Shown here piece by piece: positions 14,848 to 22,278 of a stretch of DNA of 64,000 nucleotides. The number at the start of each line of letters is the position of its first letter. Position 1 is the stretch's first letter. Origin of the DNA: Pseudobdellovibrionaceae bacterium (GTDB lineage: Bacteria; Bdellovibrionota; Bdellovibrionia; Bdellovibrionales; UBA1609). Under the pieces are notes generated by a model. It was not told the origin of the DNA and did not search any database. It saw nothing but the letters and a program-made list of their open reading frames with translations. A program made the position numbers and the translations under genes. Where the stretch lies: contig JAMLIO010000003.1 in NCBI GenBank assembly GCA_023954155.1, forward strand, positions 216,920-280,919, in the 5' to 3' direction.

Positions 14848-15450
14848 CTATTTTCTACAGAATTCTAGTAAAAGCTTACAGTCTCCATCATCTGCGGCCC
14901 TAAGGGCTACAATATACGCGCTACGAATCTCTTGATCTGACTTGTAAGAGCCCTCTTTACTTCCCCATGTGAAAGGCTTTTGATTATACTTATTCTGCAA
15001 AACTTCCGTCATAAGACGTGCATGTCGACCATTACCATTTGGAAAAGCATGAATAAAAACTAACTTGTGATGAAACCTGACACAAATTTCATCCATATTA
15101 TAAGTTTTATGCTCAATCCAATAGGTGGTATTTTGAAATAAATTTTGAAGCTGCATTGCAATTTGCGATGAATCTACTCCAATGTTTTTATTAGTTTGTC
15201 TTTGTTGTCCTGCCCACGTCCAAACCTCACCAAACATTCTTTTATGCAAACCCATACAGAAAGAAACATTTAAACAGTCTCGATCTCGTCGGCTCAAAAC
15301 CCATTTTGTGGCTGCAACAATATTTTTCTTCTCAAAAATATTTAACTCAGCTTGGGTATCAATAAAGTCTAACTTTAAACCATCTACTTCATCTGGATCT
15401 AAAGGAGTTGCCCCTTCTGGATCATCAATTTGAAAATTACTCAAAATCAC
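14848..15450 (-). CDS. Fic-domain protein, mobile mystery protein B type
   Basis: 200 aa. The Fic motif HAFPNGNGRHAR is encoded at 15051-15016. Size, and pairing with an upstream HTH gene across a 7-nt gap, match the TIGRFAM mobile mystery protein A/B pair. Confidence 0.8.
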   Translation of the reverse strand: MILSNFQIDDPEGATPLDPDEVDGLKLDFIDTQAELNIFEKKNIVAATKWVLSRRDRDCLNVSFCMGLHKRMFGEVWTWAGQQRQTNKNIGVDSSQIAMQLQNLFQNTTYWIEHKTYNMDEICVRFHHKLVFIHAFPNGNGRHARLMTEVLQNKYNQKPFTWGSKEGSYKSDQEIRSAYIVALRAADDGDCKLLLEFCRK

Positions 15451-15457
15451 TCTTTTT

Positions 15458-15940
15458 CTATTTATTGTTTACCAGTCCCCAAATTCTTGGGTCCATTTTT
15501 TGTTTCAACTCTTGCTTAAGCTTTTCAAGCTCTTTCTGTGAGTTTTTGGTACCTTGCAATTCTAATCGCATAGAGTGCTCAACATTATTTAGTATCTCAC
15601 GAGCTACTTCTTCCGCTTTACGGTCAATGATGTCTTCCAAATTTGCATAACCATCCTTGGGTACAAAAGCGTAAACCAACTTACATTCCATTTTGTCCGC
15701 AACCCGTTCCAGCATTTCTAAAGTCACATTCTTTTTAGGTTCTCGCTTTTCAAGCTGGATGATAGATGACATGCTTACCCCCAGTAACTGAGCAAGCTGT
15801 CTGGAACTCATTCCAAGCGCATTTCTAATGGCTCTCACCCAGCCTGATGGAGGAGCTTTTAATTGTTTAAGCTCCACAGCTTTAAGTCTTTGGTCTAAAA
15901 TGCTTCTATTTAGCTCTAAGTCTTTTTTATTCGTTTTCAT
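15458..15940 (-). CDS. XRE-type HTH protein, mobile mystery protein A type
   Basis: 160 aa. The HTH is GMSSRQLAQLLGVSMSSIIQLEKRE, with a charged coiled C-terminus. It sits directly upstream of the Fic gene. Confidence 0.7.
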   Translation of the reverse strand: MKTNKKDLELNRSILDQRLKAVELKQLKAPPSGWVRAIRNALGMSSRQLAQLLGVSMSSIIQLEKREPKKNVTLEMLERVADKMECKLVYAFVPKDGYANLEDIIDRKAEEVAREILNNVEHSMRLELQGTKNSQKELEKLKQELKQKMDPRIWGLVNNK

Positions 15941-16009
15941 ACTTATATAATAATTTATATATTATCATTAATCAAATATTTGATCATATTTAGATTATTT
16001 ATTATATCT

Positions 16010-16037
16010 GTTATGATCATTTATATATGATCATAAC
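16010..16037. promoter_or_regulatory. Perfect 10-bp inverted repeat (GTTATGATCA-N8-TGATCATAAC), candidate operator
   Basis: Read directly from the sequence. It lies 70-97 bp upstream of the HTH gene start (15940, minus strand). Additional TGATCA motifs occur at about 15980-15990. Confidence 0.5.
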
Positions 16038-16564
16038 ATTGGGGTTTATCCATATTTCTAGAGCTCTAATTAAGTAATAAGAGCTCAAGTTTATGTTAGT
16101 TAAATCCGCCAAATCGAATTAAAGTACAAGACAGACGCTCTCTAGAATCTAGCGTTGACAGGCTTGAAAAACCGCCACAAAACCTACGCTTCCAAAGCAT
16201 CATCGTGAATGCATTCAATAGCATTAAAAAAAATTTTAATAGCGAAAGCATTCTGTGCAAAGTCTGCCTAGTTGTGCCAATGGCCTCTACGCCTTGGTTC
16301 TATTTTTTTAGTTCTTTGTGAGCTAAATATATATTCCATTCCTTTTAATTTCCCTTTTTTTAAATCTTCTTTAACAAAATCATAATCATGCAGTATCGAT
16401 CTTAATTTTAAGACAGCTTTGCTTAATGTCTTTACCTCTGCCTAATATTAACAAAGTCTTTATATCTTCTACAAAAACATAATCATTTTAACTCTACATC
16501 TATCAGAAAATATATTGTATTTTATAATAAGAAATGTATTCACTCCGCAACAAAGAGGTGTTTG

Positions 16565-18280
16565 ATGGATTTTTCATTTGGATTTAAAAACTATAAATGC
16601 TTTGGAGAGCAAATTAATTGGATTGAGTGGAAACCTATCACTGTACTAATTGGAAAGAATAACTCTGGAAAATCTTCTATTATTGAAATAATTCAACAAC
16701 TGGTAGAAAACAAAAACTACACTCGTTTGATTGCAGAAAAGCACCACAAAAACTCAAATGGAAACGTAGCCGAACCAGAATTCTTTATTAGTCGAAAATT
16801 TGACAAACCAACATTAAGCCAAGCCTTTCCTCCAAGCGTCTCAGGCGGAGACATTGGCATGAATCATGGCAAATATGCTGATACATATGTCGGGAGTGAG
16901 TATAAATATAAGCTAATATCGAATGAGAAAGGTAATCTTTTAGAAATCCAAAAACAAGAGTCCCAAGCACAACCCTTTATGCCTGATCTAAGAACTTGGA
17001 ACAGTTATAAACTTGCAATGGAACGTAGTTTATTATCACCATTAAGACACAAAAAATTTCATTGGATAATACCTGAAAGACAAATTATATCTGAAGAAAA
17101 AACAGAGCCTCCTATCATTTACGGAACTGGCAATGGTTTAACAAATGCCATTGAAATCTTTTTGAATCACAGAAACTATGATGAAAAAACAGTCAGCAAA
17201 TACATCCTTTCAGGTCTTAATGCAATATTCAACCCAGACTATCATTTTACAAGAATTACTACAAAACACGAATCTAATAAATACGAGATCTTTCTTGAAG
17301 AAAATGGAAAGCTAATTTCTTTGAGCAATTTTGGCACAGGAATTAAAACTGTATTATTGGTTTTATCTATATTAAATTTAACCCCTATTTTAGAATGCTC
17401 TAATCCAAACGATTATGTGTACGTATTTGAGGAGCTCGAAAACAACCTGCACCCTCAACTATTAAGACGCGTTTTGAATTATATTTACACAAAAGCAAAC
17501 GAACTGTCTTTTTCTGTGATTCTTACAACTCACTCAAATGTAACTATTGATTTTTTTAGCACAAAAGAGGTTTCGCAAATACTTCATGTACAAAACAAAG
17601 AGGGGGCATATTGTGTTAATAAAGTTCAAACTTTTTTTGACAGCAAAAACGTTTTAATTGATTTGGACATCAAACCCTCTGATTTATTACAAGCTAACGG
17701 TATTATTTGGGTCGAAGGACCAAGTGACAGGATTTTACTTAATAAATGGATTTCCGAATGGGGGAAAGATTATAACTTTAATGAAGGAACGCACTATCAA
17801 ATTGTTTTCTACGGAGGAAGATTACTTAGCCATTTATCAGCTGAAGATTCAGAAGAAAATGATGATTTAATTAAAATGCTGAGAATTAATTCAAACGCAG
17901 CAATTTTGATTGATAGTGATAAAAAAATTGAATCTGACACACTCAACTCCACCAAGCAAAGAATCATTGATGAGTTTAACTCTTTTCAAGGCTTCACTTG
18001 GATAACAAAAGGTAAAGAAATCGAAAACTACTACCCTAAAGAGGTTGTGTTAAGAAAACTCTGCCTAAATGATATCCAAGACTACCATAACTTTGAACCC
18101 TTTTTTGCTAAGCTCAATACAGCTCAAGATAAACTGGGAGACAAGCTCAGTCGGCAAAAAACTAAGCTTGCAACCTCCCTTATTGAAAACTTTGATATAG
18201 ATACATGGCGCAACGTAATGGATTTAGACAAAAGAATGACCAATTTAATTTCAGAAATTAAAAAGTGGAATAATTTATAA
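16565..18280 (+). CDS. OLD-family (GajA-like) ABC-ATPase + Toprim nuclease-like protein
   Basis: Walker A GKNNSGKSS (16652-16678), Walker-B-like YVYVFEELENNLHP, and TTHS. The C-terminal Toprim signature is IIWVEGPSDRILL (from 17711) plus ILIDSDKK (DSD at 17912-17920) and GKEIENYY. ATG 16565 is preferred because AAGAGG lies 6 nt upstream. Confidence 0.7.
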   Translation: MDFSFGFKNYKCFGEQINWIEWKPITVLIGKNNSGKSSIIEIIQQLVENKNYTRLIAEKHHKNSNGNVAEPEFFISRKFDKPTLSQAFPPSVSGGDIGMNHGKYADTYVGSEYKYKLISNEKGNLLEIQKQESQAQPFMPDLRTWNSYKLAMERSLLSPLRHKKFHWIIPERQIISEEKTEPPIIYGTGNGLTNAIEIFLNHRNYDEKTVSKYILSGLNAIFNPDYHFTRITTKHESNKYEIFLEENGKLISLSNFGTGIKTVLLVLSILNLTPILECSNPNDYVYVFEELENNLHPQLLRRVLNYIYTKANELSFSVILTTHSNVTIDFFSTKEVSQILHVQNKEGAYCVNKVQTFFDSKNVLIDLDIKPSDLLQANGIIWVEGPSDRILLNKWISEWGKDYNFNEGTHYQIVFYGGRLLSHLSAEDSEENDDLIKMLRINSNAAILIDSDKKIESDTLNSTKQRIIDEFNSFQGFTWITKGKEIENYYPKEVVLRKLCLNDIQDYHNFEPFFAKLNTAQDKLGDKLSRQKTKLATSLIENFDIDTWRNVMDLDKRMTNLISEIKKWNNL

Positions 18281-18512
18281 CTGATGCATTCTTGATCTTA
18301 GCATTGTAATCAAAACTACAGTTTGTAATAAAAGTTTACTTAAACCATTTATTAAGATTTAAATACATCCTATATAAGACACAAAGCATTTTTGCGCACG
18401 ACCAATTTTATAATAATATTTTGTCAGTATTAATTATTGCCAGTTTGACCTGCTCCCCAAAAGTTGAGCCAAAAAGTATGATAAACTAGGGCTTAAAAAT
18501 GGGAGAAAGAAG

Positions 18513-18695
18513 ATGCCACGAGGAAAAAGGATAAGGGCAGAAGAAATCGTATCAAAACTTCGCCAAGCAGAAGTGATGTTAGCAAAAGGTACAGCGCTAG
18601 AGCTAGTCTGCAAACAGTTAGAAATATCACCACAAAGTTATTATAGATGGCGCAAAGAATACGGTGGCCTTGAAATCGATCAAGCTAAGAAATGA
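18513..18695 (+). pseudogene. Truncated IS3-family OrfA (HTH) fragment of a second, related IS
   Basis: The 60-aa fragment MPRGKRIRAEEIVSKLRQAEVMLAKGT...SPQSYYRWRKEYGG is paralogous to the intact OrfA at 18774. The reading frame ends exactly at the second left-end sequence (18693). Confidence 0.7.
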
Positions 18696-18773
18696 CCTCC
18701 TCCCCAAAAAGAAGGCCATGGGTATCTTTAGAAGCGTCGTGACAAGTGGTCCTTAAAGCCCTAAGGAGGATAA

Positions 18774-19040
18774 ATGAAAAAAACAAGATACACAGAAGAA
18801 CAGATCGTGCACGCCCTTCGCAGAGCCGAGTCTGGCGAACGAGCCAAGGAAGTTTGTCGTAGCCTAGGAATAACCGAGCAAACTTTTTATACATGGAAGA
18901 AGAAGTATGCAGGGTTAGGGATAAGTGAGCTACGCAAGCTAAAACAGCAAGAAGACGAGATTCGTCGTTTAAAGAACCTAGTAGCAGACCTCATGCTGGA
19001 TAAACAAATGCTCCAAGAGGTGGTTCAAAAAAAGCTCTAA
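18774..19040 (+). CDS. IS3-family transposase OrfA
   Basis: 88 aa with an HTH ([15 protein letters not shown]) and a leucine-zipper-like tail. The slippery heptamer A-AAA-AAG sits in frame at 19028-19034. Confidence 0.9.
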
Positions 19041-19072
19041 AACCTGCTAAGAGACGCGATCTTGGTCAGTGG

Positions 19073-19879
19073 TTGGTCAAGAATTTTCGCGTGAGCCATC
19101 GTAGAGTTTGCAGGTTATTGCGTCTGGCTCGGTCAACATATGACTATAAGAACCACCCTAGAGATGATCGTGCAGTTCGGGAAAAGATCATCAGCATAGC
19201 GCAATCAAGGCCACGTTATGGCTGTCCACGCATACATGTCTTACTTAGGCGTGAAGGCTGGAAGGTTAATCACAAAAGGGTTCATAGGATTTATAAGGAA
19301 GAGCAGTTATGGGTACGCACCAAGAAAGTTCGTCGCAGAAAATTTACAACTGAGCTAAGAGTTACACCTCCTACCCCGACCAATCTTAATCAAGTTTGGA
19401 CAATGGATTTTGTGCATGACCAGTTGATTGATGGCCGTAAGATACGGATGTTAACCATAGTTGATAAGTTGAGTCGAGAAAGCCTAGCAATTGATTCTGG
19501 GTATGGCCTTAAATCAGAACAGGTTATAGAAACACTAGAGCGTTTAAAAATTTTCAGAGGAATTCCAGAGGTTATATGTGTAGACAATGGGAGTGAATTT
19601 ACATCAAAAAAACTTGATCAGTGGGCTTATATAAATGAAGTAAAGTTACATTTTATTAGACCTGGAAAGCCTACAGAAAATGGGCACATAGAATCGTTTA
19701 ACGGTAGACTTAGGGATGAGTTTTTAAATGCAAATCTCTTTTCAAGCCTTGAGGACTTCCAAAGAAAGGCGGAAAGATGGCGTATAGAATATAACAATTG
19801 GAGACCTCATTCATCAATAGGCAACTTGACACCAAGAGAATTTGCTAGGAGAAGAATGAATAAACAGACCGCTTGTTAA
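19073..19879 (+). CDS. IS3-family transposase OrfB (DDE integrase core), expressed as OrfAB by -1 frameshift
   Basis: The -1 frame read from 19028-19034 runs [22 protein letters not shown]... straight into this ORF. The DDE residues lie in [17 protein letters not shown] and [12 protein letters not shown]. Confidence 0.9.
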
Positions 19880-19979
19880 TGCGTTGTCACTCAGAAAGAT
19901 ACTGGCTTTGTCGATGGGGATAGATCAGCTATGCAGATAGTCTCTTAGTATTTGGCTCATACTTCGGGGGCAGGTCACC

Positions 19980-20411
19980 GACGCCTGCCCCGTAAAAGAC
20001 GAAACCTACAAAGTGGCCGAAAGGTACCAACTCGTCGTTTACGTTGTAGCCAACCAATACCTTAACGTTCCTATGAGCACTCGCATTCGTATGGAATGCG
20101 TGGAAGGGTCATTTGATGCTGCTGATGATTGGATTGTGGAAAAGATTGAGCGTGGCGATGTTTTGATCACCTCAGATATTCTTTTAGCTCAGCGATGTTT
20201 AGAAAAAGAGGTCTTTGTTCTCAACCCCAAAGGACACGAATTCACCCAAGATAATATTGGTGAAGCCATAAGTGGTCGTGAGCTAGCTGAACACCAAAGA
20301 AACTTAGGTCAGTCAGGTACTGGCCCAAGCCCCATGACTAAAGCTGACCGTTCGCAGTTTTTGTCAAAGCTAGATCAAGTAATACAAAAGGCAAAGCGTA
20401 AAAATACTTGA
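19980..20411 (+). pseudogene. yaiI: YaiI/YqxD (UPF0178/DUF188) family gene, 5'-truncated by the IS
   Basis: The frame reads DACPVKDETYKVAERYQLVVYVVAN... from the first codon after the IS right end (19977). That is the conserved family N-terminus (..VDADACPV..) missing about 7 codons and its start. The track ORF begins at an internal GTG (20013). Confidence 0.7.
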
Positions 20412-20616
20412 TGGTTGATAAAATCAGCCTCAAATCTATAAAATAGGCAGCAAATATCCAGATCAAAGTCTAGTAAAAGTCTATATTTAAGACCTAATTC
20501 ATTGAACATATAACCTATAATACTATCTTTAAAATGAGCCCAACTTCTATTAAAATAGGCCATTTATAACCTTATAATGCTTTATATTGATTTAGGTACT
20601 TAATTTAATCACAACA

Positions 20617-20717
20617 TCTAGTAAATTTACCAAATAAGTTCTAGAAAAAATAAACTCTATCTTCTAGTATATTTTTATGTTAAGTTCTAGTAAATTTTCT
20701 CGATAAGTTCTAGAAAA
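20617..20717. promoter_or_regulatory. Two 32-bp direct repeats (27/32 identical) plus a partial copy, upstream of the large Fic gene
   Basis: Copy A (20617-20648) is TCTAGTAAATTTACCAAATAAGTTCTAGAAAA. Copy B (20686-20717) is TCTAGTAAATTTTCTCGATAAGTTCTAGAAAA. A partial CTTCTAGTATATTT lies at 20661-20674. Each copy carries two TTCTAG(T/A)AAA half-sites. Copy B ends 13 nt before the GTG start. Confidence 0.6.
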
Positions 20718-20730
20718 GGGAGCCACAAAA

Positions 20731-22278
20731 GTGCCAAAGCAAAAGCCTCATGAAATTTTAGCTGAAGCTCTGACGCATGCAAAACAAGTCTCTGGAGAAA
20801 AAGGGGTGCTCAAGCACTCCGATCTTGAAAGTAAGTATATACAAGTTCTAAAAAAAGGTGGATGGCTTACCCCCATTATTAAAGGCTGGTACTTACTTAA
20901 CAAACCTGAAGACACTGGCACTTCTACAGTTTGGTATGTGGGCTTTTGGTCCTTTCTTAAGGCTTATTTAGAGGATCGCCTAGGTAAAGACGGTTACTGC
21001 CTGTCTGCTGAGGCTTCTGTCTCTCTTCATACAGCCGAAGAGCACATCCATAAACAAATTACAGTGATCACAAAAAAGAATACTAATCAAACTATAGATC
21101 TACCTTTCGGAACATCACTTCTTCTTTATACCGATACAAAAAACTTTCCACAAAGCATTCAAGATCTTAGCGGATTAAGCGTTATGCCCCTGCCACTAGC
21201 ACTATGCAGGCTATCACCCGCGTACTTTCAGACAAAACCTTTAAACGTTGAGATCGCCTTACGAAGCTTAAGCTCAGTTTCTGAAGTGTCACGAATTTTT
21301 CTTGATAATGGCCTTGTCACAAGTGCATCACGGTTAGCTGGAGCATTTGAAGCTTTGGGAGATCAAAAAGCCGCAAAACAAATTATTGATGACATGGACG
21401 CCGCTGGTTATGCCGTCGAAAGCCAAAATCCTTTTGAAAGATACACTTCTTTGTTTACTAACTCTACCAGAATACGCTCACCTTATGTTGGAAGAATTCA
21501 AGCGCTTTGGAAAAAAATGCGTCTTGATATAATAGATATCTTACCTCCGCCGCCTGGGTTGGTGCCACGTGAAAACAAAAACTTTGTCCACATCATTGAA
21601 GAACGATACATACAAGATGCATATCACTCTTTATCCATTGAAGGGTATGAAGTTAGTGAAGAGCTGATTGAAAAGATTCAATCAGGAAATTGGAGCCCTG
21701 ACTCCAACGCTAGTGATTTGAATCATAAAAATGCTATGGCCGCCAAAGGTTACTACGAATCCTTCATTCAAGTTCTTGATAGCATTAAAAAAATCTTAAG
21801 AAAAGATAAGTCTGCCAGTGAAGTTTTTTATGAAGATTTGCAAGATTGGTATCGCGCCTTATTTTCCCCAAGTGTGCAAGCAGGTATTATTAAAGCAGCA
21901 GACCTGGCAGGTTACAGAAACGCTCCCGTATATATTAAAAATGCCCGACATGTGCCACCCAGATCTGAAGCTGTAACCGATGCCATGGAAGCCCTGTTTT
22001 CTCTTATTAAAGACGAAGAGCACGAAGGTGTTAAAGCTATTCTAGGTCATTTTATTTTTGTTTATATTCATCCTTACATGGATGGTAACGGACGTATTGC
22101 AAGATTTTTAATGAACCTTATGCTGACCTCAGGTGGCTACGACTGGACCATTATTCGCACGGAAAGCAGGAATAAGTACATGGCTGCCTTAGATGCTGCA
22201 TCTTCTGATGGTGACATTAAACCCTTTGCGAAATTGGTGGCACAAGAAATGGAGCACTGGAAGGATCAGGGCAGCTAA
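20731..22278 (+). CDS. Fic-domain protein with an AbiEi-antitoxin-like N-terminal domain
   Basis: 515 aa. The Fic motif HPYMDGNGRIAR is at 22069-22104. An N-terminal-side inhibitory-helix-type motif SLSIEG ([ST]xxxE[GN]) is at 21628-21645. The first ~200 aa (VLKHSDLES..LKKGGWLTPIIKGWYLL...YCLSAEASVSLHT) follow the AbiEi_4-type wHTH antitoxin pattern. GTG start with AAGGGAG upstream. Confidence 0.75.
   Translation: MPKQKPHEILAEALTHAKQVSGEKGVLKHSDLESKYIQVLKKGGWLTPIIKGWYLLNKPEDTGTSTVWYVGFWSFLKAYLEDRLGKDGYCLSAEASVSLHTAEEHIHKQITVITKKNTNQTIDLPFGTSLLLYTDTKNFPQSIQDLSGLSVMPLPLALCRLSPAYFQTKPLNVEIALRSLSSVSEVSRIFLDNGLVTSASRLAGAFEALGDQKAAKQIIDDMDAAGYAVESQNPFERYTSLFTNSTRIRSPYVGRIQALWKKMRLDIIDILPPPPGLVPRENKNFVHIIEERYIQDAYHSLSIEGYEVSEELIEKIQSGNWSPDSNASDLNHKNAMAAKGYYESFIQVLDSIKKILRKDKSASEVFYEDLQDWYRALFSPSVQAGIIKAADLAGYRNAPVYIKNARHVPPRSEAVTDAMEALFSLIKDEEHEGVKAILGHFIFVYIHPYMDGNGRIARFLMNLMLTSGGYDWTIIRTESRNKYMAALDAASSDGDIKPFAKLVAQEMEHWKDQGS

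Follow-up and report, generated by a model that had tools for sequence, protein, structure and literature searches.

Within the OLD nucleases, a family that is central to Gabija, PARIS and retron defence, the solo members (Class 1) form the branch of which least is understood and, to our knowledge, P2 Old, Vc OLD and YbjD are the only ones among them with phenotypes. On the basis of genomic context the family has been divided into solo genes (Class 1), genes accompanied by a helicase (Class 2) or by a retron (Class 3), genes split as in PARIS (Class 4) and Cran1 (Class 5) (PMC10568477, PMC12796447), and Class 2 is reported to fall inside Class 1's diversity (PMC12796447). P2 Old needs both of its domains and, once activated, amputates the anticodon arm of tRNA-Thr (PMC7049728, PMC12445682), and its residues K37, D299, H306 and H332 are all required in vivo (PMC7049728). 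Vc OLD is an abortive-infection DNA nickase for which Walker A, Walker B and the DxD motif are needed (PMC12392090), the OLD of Thermus scotoductus (TsOLD) uses two-metal catalysis (PMC7049728) and E. coli YbjD has phenotypes against phages once its expression is induced (PMC13261556). Solo OLDs are sufficient for defence in the cases of Vc OLD from V. cholerae (PMC12392090) and the Old protein of phage P2 (PMC12445682). Here, an OLD gene is described from a 64,000-nucleotide stretch of the genome of a Pseudobdellovibrionaceae bacterium (contig JAMLIO010000003.1, positions 216,920 to 280,919), referred to below as the window and numbered from its first nucleotide. The gene occupies 16565..18280 of the plus strand, stop codon counted, and is complete, encoding an ATPase-Toprim protein of 571 amino acids that was recognised from the listing of open reading frames (ORFs), Pfam, PADLOC, homologues, AlphaFold2 and Foldseek. 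Its genomic context places it in Class 1 (solo OLDs), the family standing alone at every evolutionary distance examined. The protein is probably (at a probability of roughly 0.6) an intact, autonomous OLD-family enzyme that would act as an ATP-gated two-metal nuclease in abortive-infection defence, its activity, substrate, trigger and defence role being those that we infer by analogy with the characterised OLDs.

A solo OLD gene without a conserved partner

The gene is an ordinary member of a large known family of OLD nucleases, the relatives of which are already annotated as such in public records ('ATP-dependent nuclease' or 'endonuclease of OLD family'). The closest homologues share 55-56% identity with the protein (E about 3e-208 to 1e-205) and thousands more were returned by the database search; in an exhaustive hidden Markov model search covering 1.84 billion cluster representatives, at least 2,037 clusters at 50% identity matched at E<=1e-30. 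A few fragments aside, the best 150 each gave one full-length match, to proteins of ~545-605 amino acids and with no fusions among them. Given these homologue scores, which exclude chance, the ORF at 16565-18280 is a real gene. The longest frame in the ORF listing, 16562..18280, opens with a TTG; the ATG at 16565, which gives the 571-residue protein, yields an N-terminus in agreement with those of the homologues (MD/N/S-FSF) and lies 6 nt 3' of a Shine-Dalgarno sequence, AAAGAGG (core GAGG), at 16552-16558. Together with a promoter-like TTAACT-17-TATATT at 16488-16516, a site that comes from a consensus scan only and is alone without significance, this sequence makes up a putative set of expression signals at 16488..16558 on the plus strand.

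An earlier note on this DNA had proposed that the gene is either a solo OLD nuclease or the remnant of a two-gene system, having seen no UvrD-like helicase, reverse transcriptase or DUF4435 gene as its partner. The ORF listing and Pfam agree that none of the three lies beside the gene. Furthermore, there is no Rfam match at E<=1 between 14,500 and 21,000, no retron non-coding RNA and no reverse transcriptase domain in the neighbouring ORFs, and the window holds no tRNA. The partner question was then taken to the homologues, of which 80 loci, one genome per species, were collected from Bacteroidota, Bacillota, Planctomycetota, Alpha- and Gammaproteobacteria, Spirochaetia, Actinomycetota and others. 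ORFs were called in the 67 usable loci, the three neighbours on either side were clustered by all-against-all BLASTP, and the immediate neighbours were scanned in bulk with Pfam and PADLOC. No UvrD-type helicase or other recurrent neighbour was found in these 67 loci or beside the four closest relatives. The largest cluster of neighbours, which resembles type I restriction-modification genes, occurs in six of the 67 loci at positions -3, -1, +1 and +2, and type I restriction-modification components were rejected as a partner given the small number of loci (at most six) and the inconsistent positions. The remaining clusters reach at most three loci, those being near-identical Streptococcus loci, and any one Pfam family is found in at most two of the immediate neighbours (62 upstream, 64 downstream). 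A same-strand neighbour within 50 bp is absent in 47 of the 67 loci, and the one weak match to a GajB model falls on the C-terminal domain of a family member itself.

The four closest relatives (45-56% identity) each have a different setting. P0002 (55%) lies between an unannotated small ORF upstream and a sigma-70 fragment downstream, and P0003 (56%, locus L003) between a divergent RES-Xre toxin-antitoxin pair upstream and a UbiE-type methyltransferase gene downstream; P0004 (45%) is found in an RHS toxin region and P0006 (45%) by a nucleotidyltransferase toxin-antitoxin-like pair and a GNAT gene, with a rhomboid gene. The conjugative Vibrio scophthalmi plasmid pVS127 carries a copy whose flanks hold only IS21 and IS256 insertion sequences (ISs). 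Two further candidates for an operon partner were rejected, as neither is seen elsewhere: a 107-residue ORF 14 bp upstream of one homologue (L001), which also has no Pfam domain, and the methyltransferase of L003, which starts 52 bp downstream. Given that there is no conserved neighbour in the 67 loci, the four closest relatives or the plasmid copy, the gene is assigned to Class 1 by context, and of the two alternatives in the earlier note it is the solo one that is borne out. The same is true of P2 Old, TsOLD, Vc OLD and YbjD/OldB, which are likewise solo genes in variable neighbourhoods, whereas the contexts that define Class 2 (Gabija), Class 3 (retron) and Class 4 (PARIS) were not found; in particular, GajB, the UvrD-like helicase of Gabija, is absent beside the window gene and the 67 homologues, which are therefore not paired with a helicase.

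Motif conservation and predicted fold

Alignments of 26 and 141 sequences, hhalign against P2 Old and the TsOLD alignment delimit an ABC-type ATPase half at residues 1-354 (16565..17626, plus strand). This half holds Walker A (G30-S37, with K36), a loop with R172 and E177, a signature-like motif (S254-T262), the Walker B residues E289/E290, the D-loop histidine H296 and H323 of the H-loop, positions that are unchanged or almost so in both alignments. Residues 355-571 (17627..18277, plus strand) form a Toprim domain followed by a helical bundle, as indicated by the domain model, Foldseek, sub-threshold Pfam matches, the PADLOC GajA models and residue invariance, and carry E384-x3-D388, D450-x-D452, E485-x-E487 and K532. 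All the motifs quoted in the earlier note, GKNNSGKSS (K36), FEELENNLHP (E289/E290, H296) and TTHS (H323) in the ATPase and VEGPSD (E384, D388), DSD (D450/D452) and IENYY (within EIENYY; E485/E487) in the Toprim domain, are present at the numbering given there, and the likeness in size to P2 Old also holds (571 versus 586 amino acids).

The 141 cluster representatives share 30-42% identity with the window protein, and the residues that do not vary among them are G30, N32, G35, K36, G257, E289, E290, E292, H296, H323 and S324 on the ATPase side and S372, D373, W382, E384, D388, G418, D450, D452, E487 and K532 on the C-terminal side; E485 is kept in at least 90% of them. The residues by which an OLD ATPase is recognised, namely the Walker A lysine, the acidic Walker B residue and the histidines of the D-loop and H-loop, are thus all invariant, and the motif set of an OLD metal site (a glutamate on strand 1, an acidic residue at +4, DxD, [S/T/D/E]-x-E and a basic residue) is present. 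Of 149 columns that are highly conserved in the family, the window protein differs at 13 and members of its own subclade at 8-15. Given that this number is in line with the subclade and that no deviation falls at a catalytic position, the copy does not look as if it were decaying.

The family is only partly covered by existing models. In the Pfam scan AAA_15 and AAA_21 scored above threshold and no Toprim model did so, the OLD-like_TOPRIM model matching 15 of 16 family members just below threshold (0.002-0.004), and NCBIfam has no model above its cut-off for the protein. The best PADLOC matches are the GajA models, none of which matches the full length; they cover residues 247-464 (E=5.5e-26), from Walker B through DSD and with E384 to D452 included. 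A single-sequence search of the PDB gave no match, nor did a profile of the C-terminal region, even at E<=10. Searching the PDB with family profiles built from the 26 and 141 sequences returned the retron Eco8 OLD as the best match (1.7e-11), in an alignment that spans Walker B, the H-loop and the first Toprim glutamate and pairs VEGA with VEGP; TsOLD was aligned by the family profile at Walker B and the H-loop. Comparison of the family profile with P2 Old in hhalign aligned the ATPase only, at a probability of 80%, and paired the P2 Old residues K37, D299, H306 and H332 with K36, E289, H296 and H323 of the window protein; the Toprim domain of P2 Old failed to align by profile methods, and against YbjD only Walker A aligned.

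Structure prediction extends the comparison to the whole length. The full-length AlphaFold2 model, made with the 26 homologues, has a predicted local distance difference test score (pLDDT) of 86, and its top Foldseek matches in the PDB are GajA (8u7i_A, E=1.6e-15, and 8sm3), followed by Eco8 OLD (9lp9_B) and, lower, TsOLD (6p74). These alignments span the whole length (560-720 alignment columns), at an identity to GajA of ~12-15%, whereas the heads of Rad50 and SMC proteins match the ATPase half only. When modelled alone, the C-terminal 217 residues (pLDDT 84) fold into four parallel strands alternating with helices, then a helical bundle, for which the best match is the C-terminal region of the Xanthomonas OLD, XccOLD (6njv/6njx/6njw; probability ~1, template modelling (TM) score 0.44-0.49), followed by GajA, AriB and the Toprim domain of retron Eco2. 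Structure prediction and Foldseek therefore recover the Toprim fold that the earlier note had expected and, together with the motifs and their invariance across the family, uphold its assignment of the protein to the OLD family as an ABC-type ATPase joined to a Toprim domain.

The nearest relatives by sequence and fold are thus GajA and XccOLD, both Class 2, and the Eco8 OLD of Class 3, which agrees with the nesting of Class 2 within Class 1. GajA is the best match both of the full-length structure and in PADLOC, and the C-terminal region of XccOLD, comprising Toprim and helical domains, is the closest to that of the window protein. Eco8 OLD is the best sequence-level match in the PDB and the second-best fold match, yet it has 750 residues rather than 571, and the window gene has neither the reverse transcriptase nor the non-coding RNA of a retron. 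Among the Class 1 proteins, P2 Old pairs with the window protein at its ATPase residues and is of similar size. The order of the acidic Toprim motifs in TsOLD, BpOLD and P2 Old is the same as in the window protein (PMC7049728), the residues being E377/D381, D431/D433 and S478/E480 in TsOLD and E398/E402, D453/D455, D541/E543 and K550 in P2 Old (PMC7049728); TsOLD also shares the glutamate (E276) that replaces the Walker B aspartate (PMC7049728). Nevertheless, P2 Old, Vc OLD and YbjD belong to a different sequence clade, as indicated for Vc OLD by its numbering (K48, D313, D468, D470) and its Walker B aspartate (PMC12392090). TsOLD differs in having no C-terminal helical bundle (PMC7049728), which the window model places at residues ~513-568, and in having a four-helix dimerisation insert (PMC7049728) where the window model has two short helices (192-222); TsOLD is the only Class 1 structure compared and these features do not define the class.

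The matches to AriB and to PADLOC candidates raise the possibility that the protein is a fused relative of a split ATPase and Toprim system, PARIS (Class 4)-like or of the PDC-M55A/B type, and that, as an effector of abortive infection, it would cleave tRNA instead of nicking DNA. Both PARIS (AriA/AriB) and PDC-M55A/B, the latter a computational candidate only, follow the same logic of an ABC ATPase with a Toprim-type nuclease. PDC-M55A matches the N-terminus of the window protein (5.6e-13), and in 14 of 16 family members PDC-M55B matches the C-terminal domain (2.1e-8 at best), so that a split two-gene relative of the fused family may exist; AriB ranks high in the structural comparison of the Toprim domain, single-gene PARIS fusions have been described (PMC9122126) and tRNA is cleaved by both P2 Old and AriB (PMC12445682, PMC12409363). 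However, this is unlikely for several reasons: PARIS and PDC-M55 consist of separate proteins, whereas the window protein is one fused polypeptide without a DUF4435 signature, the 16 members giving no match to DUF4435 (PF14491) at E<=10; the fold match to AriB is weak, with a probability of 0.41-0.63 as against ~1.0 for XccOLD; the window protein's own match to PDC-M55B is marginal (0.0025); and the matches to AriA come from the generic AAA_15 and AAA_21 models.

Proposed function

The mechanism proposed for the window protein, that of an autonomous ATP-gated nuclease, is extrapolated from P2 Old, Vc OLD, GajA and TsOLD. The N-terminal ABC-type ATPase would serve as a sensor or switch, fused to a Toprim two-metal nuclease and a short helical bundle. 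Binding and hydrolysis of ATP at K36, E289/E290, H296 and H323 would control dimerisation or conformation, and this step would license the Toprim site, in which, judging from motif order and fold, metal A would be held by E384, D450 and D452 and metal B by D388, E485 and E487, with K532 as a general stabiliser. Upon phage infection the Toprim site would nick or cleave nucleic acid, either DNA or tRNA, and so give protection of the abortive-infection type. The gene itself was probably acquired horizontally, within a small low-GC accessory islet.

A number of observations weigh against this reading. The clade is without a characterised member, and with OLDs that have been solved or characterised it shares sequence similarity in the ATPase motifs only: Pfam OLD-like_TOPRIM stays under its cut-off, the Toprim domain of P2 Old could not be aligned by profile methods, and the equivalence of the Toprim catalytic residues rests on motif order and fold, not on superposition or residue-level alignment. 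Foldseek gave modest TM-scores (full length, 0.3; domain, 0.47). Phage genomes hardly contain the family, and recognisable defence genes occur in a minority of homologue neighbourhoods. In addition, the Toprim domain is dispensable in YbjD (PMC13261556), and one OLD class, the archaeal Cran1, is not defensive (PMC12796447).

Given the Cran1 precedent (PMC12796447), it could be argued that the protein is an accessory or housekeeping ATPase-nuclease of DNA metabolism, acting in repair or in chromosome or plasmid maintenance, as Cran1 or the RecF/SbcC-type ABC ATPases. The homologues are chromosomal in many phyla, most of their neighbourhoods have no recognisable defence gene, and the heads of Rad50 and SMC proteins are strong structural matches for the ATPase half. 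This is nevertheless quite unlikely: first, the distribution of the homologues is patchy and without synteny; second, the window copy lies in a low-GC islet that adjoins toxin-antitoxin-like and IS elements, and relatives adjoin RES-Xre, MNT/HEPN-like, restriction-modification, CBASS-effector or IS elements, a pattern of neighbours that is typical of mobile accessory and defence genes and not of core functions. The recognised defence genes beside homologues comprise type I and type II restriction-modification, MADS, a CBASS-type effector and other Old genes, each type being found in one or two loci only; toxin-antitoxin genes also lie beside some homologues. The overall pattern is the one expected of an accessory gene that moves horizontally; it is consistent with defence and no proof of it. 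An origin from phages or plasmids was considered and rejected, given that phage genomes gave one distant match (24.7% identity over 42% of the query), plasmid copies amount to a handful and the structural matches in BFVD are generic ABC ATPases or giant-virus endonucleases.

The downstream deletion

Beyond the stop codon the plus strand carries the remains of one IS3-family element and a complete second one. The first, the left end of an element, spans 247 bp (18446..18692) and consists of a left inverted repeat, TGACCTGCTCCCCAAAA, and a 60-residue orfA fragment with a predicted stop at 18693-18695. The second, of 1,285 bp (18693..19977), is bounded by the inverted repeats TGACCTCC and GGCAGGTCA, has distant matches annotated as IS3 family transposase, and contains orfA (18774-19040), an A-rich slippery run near 19026 and orfB in the -1 frame (19073-19879). 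Its left inverted repeat, at 18693, is 94% identical to the first and its right inverted repeat ends at 19977. The orfA fragment of the remnant has only 40% amino-acid identity to orfA of the complete element, so that there are two different IS3-family elements here, the first of which is reduced to its left end. No target-site duplication was found at either junction, and within the 64-kb window there are no further copies of IS elements that could explain recombination. The next gene, yaiI/yqxD (DUF188; 19980..20411, plus strand), is truncated at its 5' end: it matches NF001095 from profile position 8 to 149 of 150, and its frame continues without a stop to the right end of the IS; only ~7 N-terminal codons and the promoter are missing. 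As the 5' piece of yaiI is absent from the far side of the IS, a deletion and not a simple insertion has to be assumed, and the simplest account is one in which DNA was lost outward from the complete IS3's right end. The earlier note was correct in placing an IS 165 bp past the stop codon (left repeat at 18446), in seeing no target duplication and in stating that the 5' end of the next gene had been deleted; its single IS has to be replaced by two elements, and the loss from yaiI is small. Both elements would have landed beside the OLD gene later than its arrival, the deletion then reaching into yaiI. A search for an IS-free sister locus, in which metagenome contigs were queried with the upstream 596-residue acyltransferase protein, found no relatives.

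That a deletion did occur, as seen from the missing target-site duplications, the first IS cut to 247 bp and the shortened yaiI, makes it conceivable that it removed a helicase or effector partner, as in Gabija, and that the gene is an orphan of a two-gene system; its closest PADLOC models, moreover, are those of GajA. However, this is very unlikely for three reasons: first, neither a UvrD-like helicase nor any recurrent neighbour accompanies the gene in the homologue loci or the four closest relatives, so that there is no partner in the family to lose, and the loss suggested in the earlier note falls away; second, most of those loci (47 of 67) have no same-strand gene inside 50 bp; third, between the stop codon and the IS lie 165 bp of AT-rich non-coding DNA, unlike Gabija, in which gajB is directly downstream of gajA. 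As the family is without a partner, the deletion has no bearing on the function of the OLD gene. The idea that the copy is a relic, no longer active and decaying in a region ridden with ISs, draws on the adjacent IS elements, the truncated neighbour, the 624-bp non-coding region upstream that is without an ORF and the deviation at 13 of 149 conserved columns, but is highly improbable given the full-length frame, the retention of every catalytic and invariant residue, a deviation count equal to that of intact subclade relatives (8-15) and the good Shine-Dalgarno sequence. The annotation of the window is accordingly a mundane one, an accessory ATP-dependent nuclease gene in an IS-shaped islet and not the wreck of a two-gene system.

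Wider occurrence of the clade

The main interest for specialists lies in the size of this uncharacterised solo clade compared with the quoted rarity of Class 1, the genes of which are put at 0.45% of genomes by DefenseFinder-based counts. The clade counts no fewer than 2,000 clusters from many phyla (clustered at 50% identity), has a fixed length of ~565 amino acids, and combines a GajA-like C-terminal region without a helicase partner with a reduced dimerisation insert and a beta-rich insert after Walker A. PADLOC has no model over its full length, NCBIfam lacks one and the Pfam Toprim match stays under threshold; it is possible, although somewhat doubtful, that the clade represents a distinct, widespread lineage of autonomous OLD enzymes missed by current defence catalogues. 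Should its members prove to be single-gene abortive-infection systems, the quoted figure would greatly understate how common solo OLDs are, and trigger and substrate could be particular to the clade. The gene could serve as a test case for defence by a solo OLD, for what is sensed and for the cutting of DNA as opposed to tRNA.

The low-GC islet

The OLD gene belongs to a low-GC islet and has on either side a Fic-type gene that is a PADLOC candidate; the GC content is 31-36% across ~15.1-18.5 kb as against ~41% for the window and 44% for the IS. Class 1 genes have been described as lying away from defence-candidate genes (PMC10568477), whereas the window copy adjoins such genes. Upstream, on the minus strand, lie a Fic 'mobile mystery protein B' gene (14848..15450; TIGR02613, 2.8e-68; PADLOC PDC-S04, 1.5e-21) and a helix-turn-helix (HTH) 'mobile mystery protein A' gene (15458..15940; TIGR02612, 3.8e-41). 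This HTH/Fic pair was not found beside the homologues and is not a conserved partner. Toxin-antitoxin-type pairs also stand by closest homologues, RES-Xre divergently upstream in L003 (7178-9692) and a nucleotidyltransferase/substrate-binding pair upstream in L088 (821-4035); they echo the HTH/Fic pair upstream of the window gene, and the pairs are not homologous to each other.

A 624-bp spacer (15941-16564) separates the HTH gene from the OLD gene and is very AT-rich, with a GC content as low as 26%. It has no Rfam match and no ORF longer than 54 amino acids, and a hidden pseudogene was rejected given that its translation is riddled with stop codons. The spacer holds a 22-nt direct repeat, the copies of which (16368-16389 and 16465-16486) are 86% identical. 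Just upstream of the HTH/Fic pair there are AT-rich direct repeats (15946-16034) and a near-perfect palindrome, TGTTATGATCATTTA/TATATGATCATAACA, at 16009-16038, which together look like an operator for the HTH protein. Downstream, past yaiI, a gene for a Fic-domain protein of 515 amino acids (20731..22278) has a partial SoFic-like PADLOC match (1.8e-24). Ahead of it, at 20601-20717, a repeat with AAGTTCTAG(A/T)AAA / TCTAGTAAATTT occurs three times at spacings of 23 and 46 nt, a possible regulatory array, and a similar word, TCTAGTAAAAG, also occurs at 14861 and 20466.

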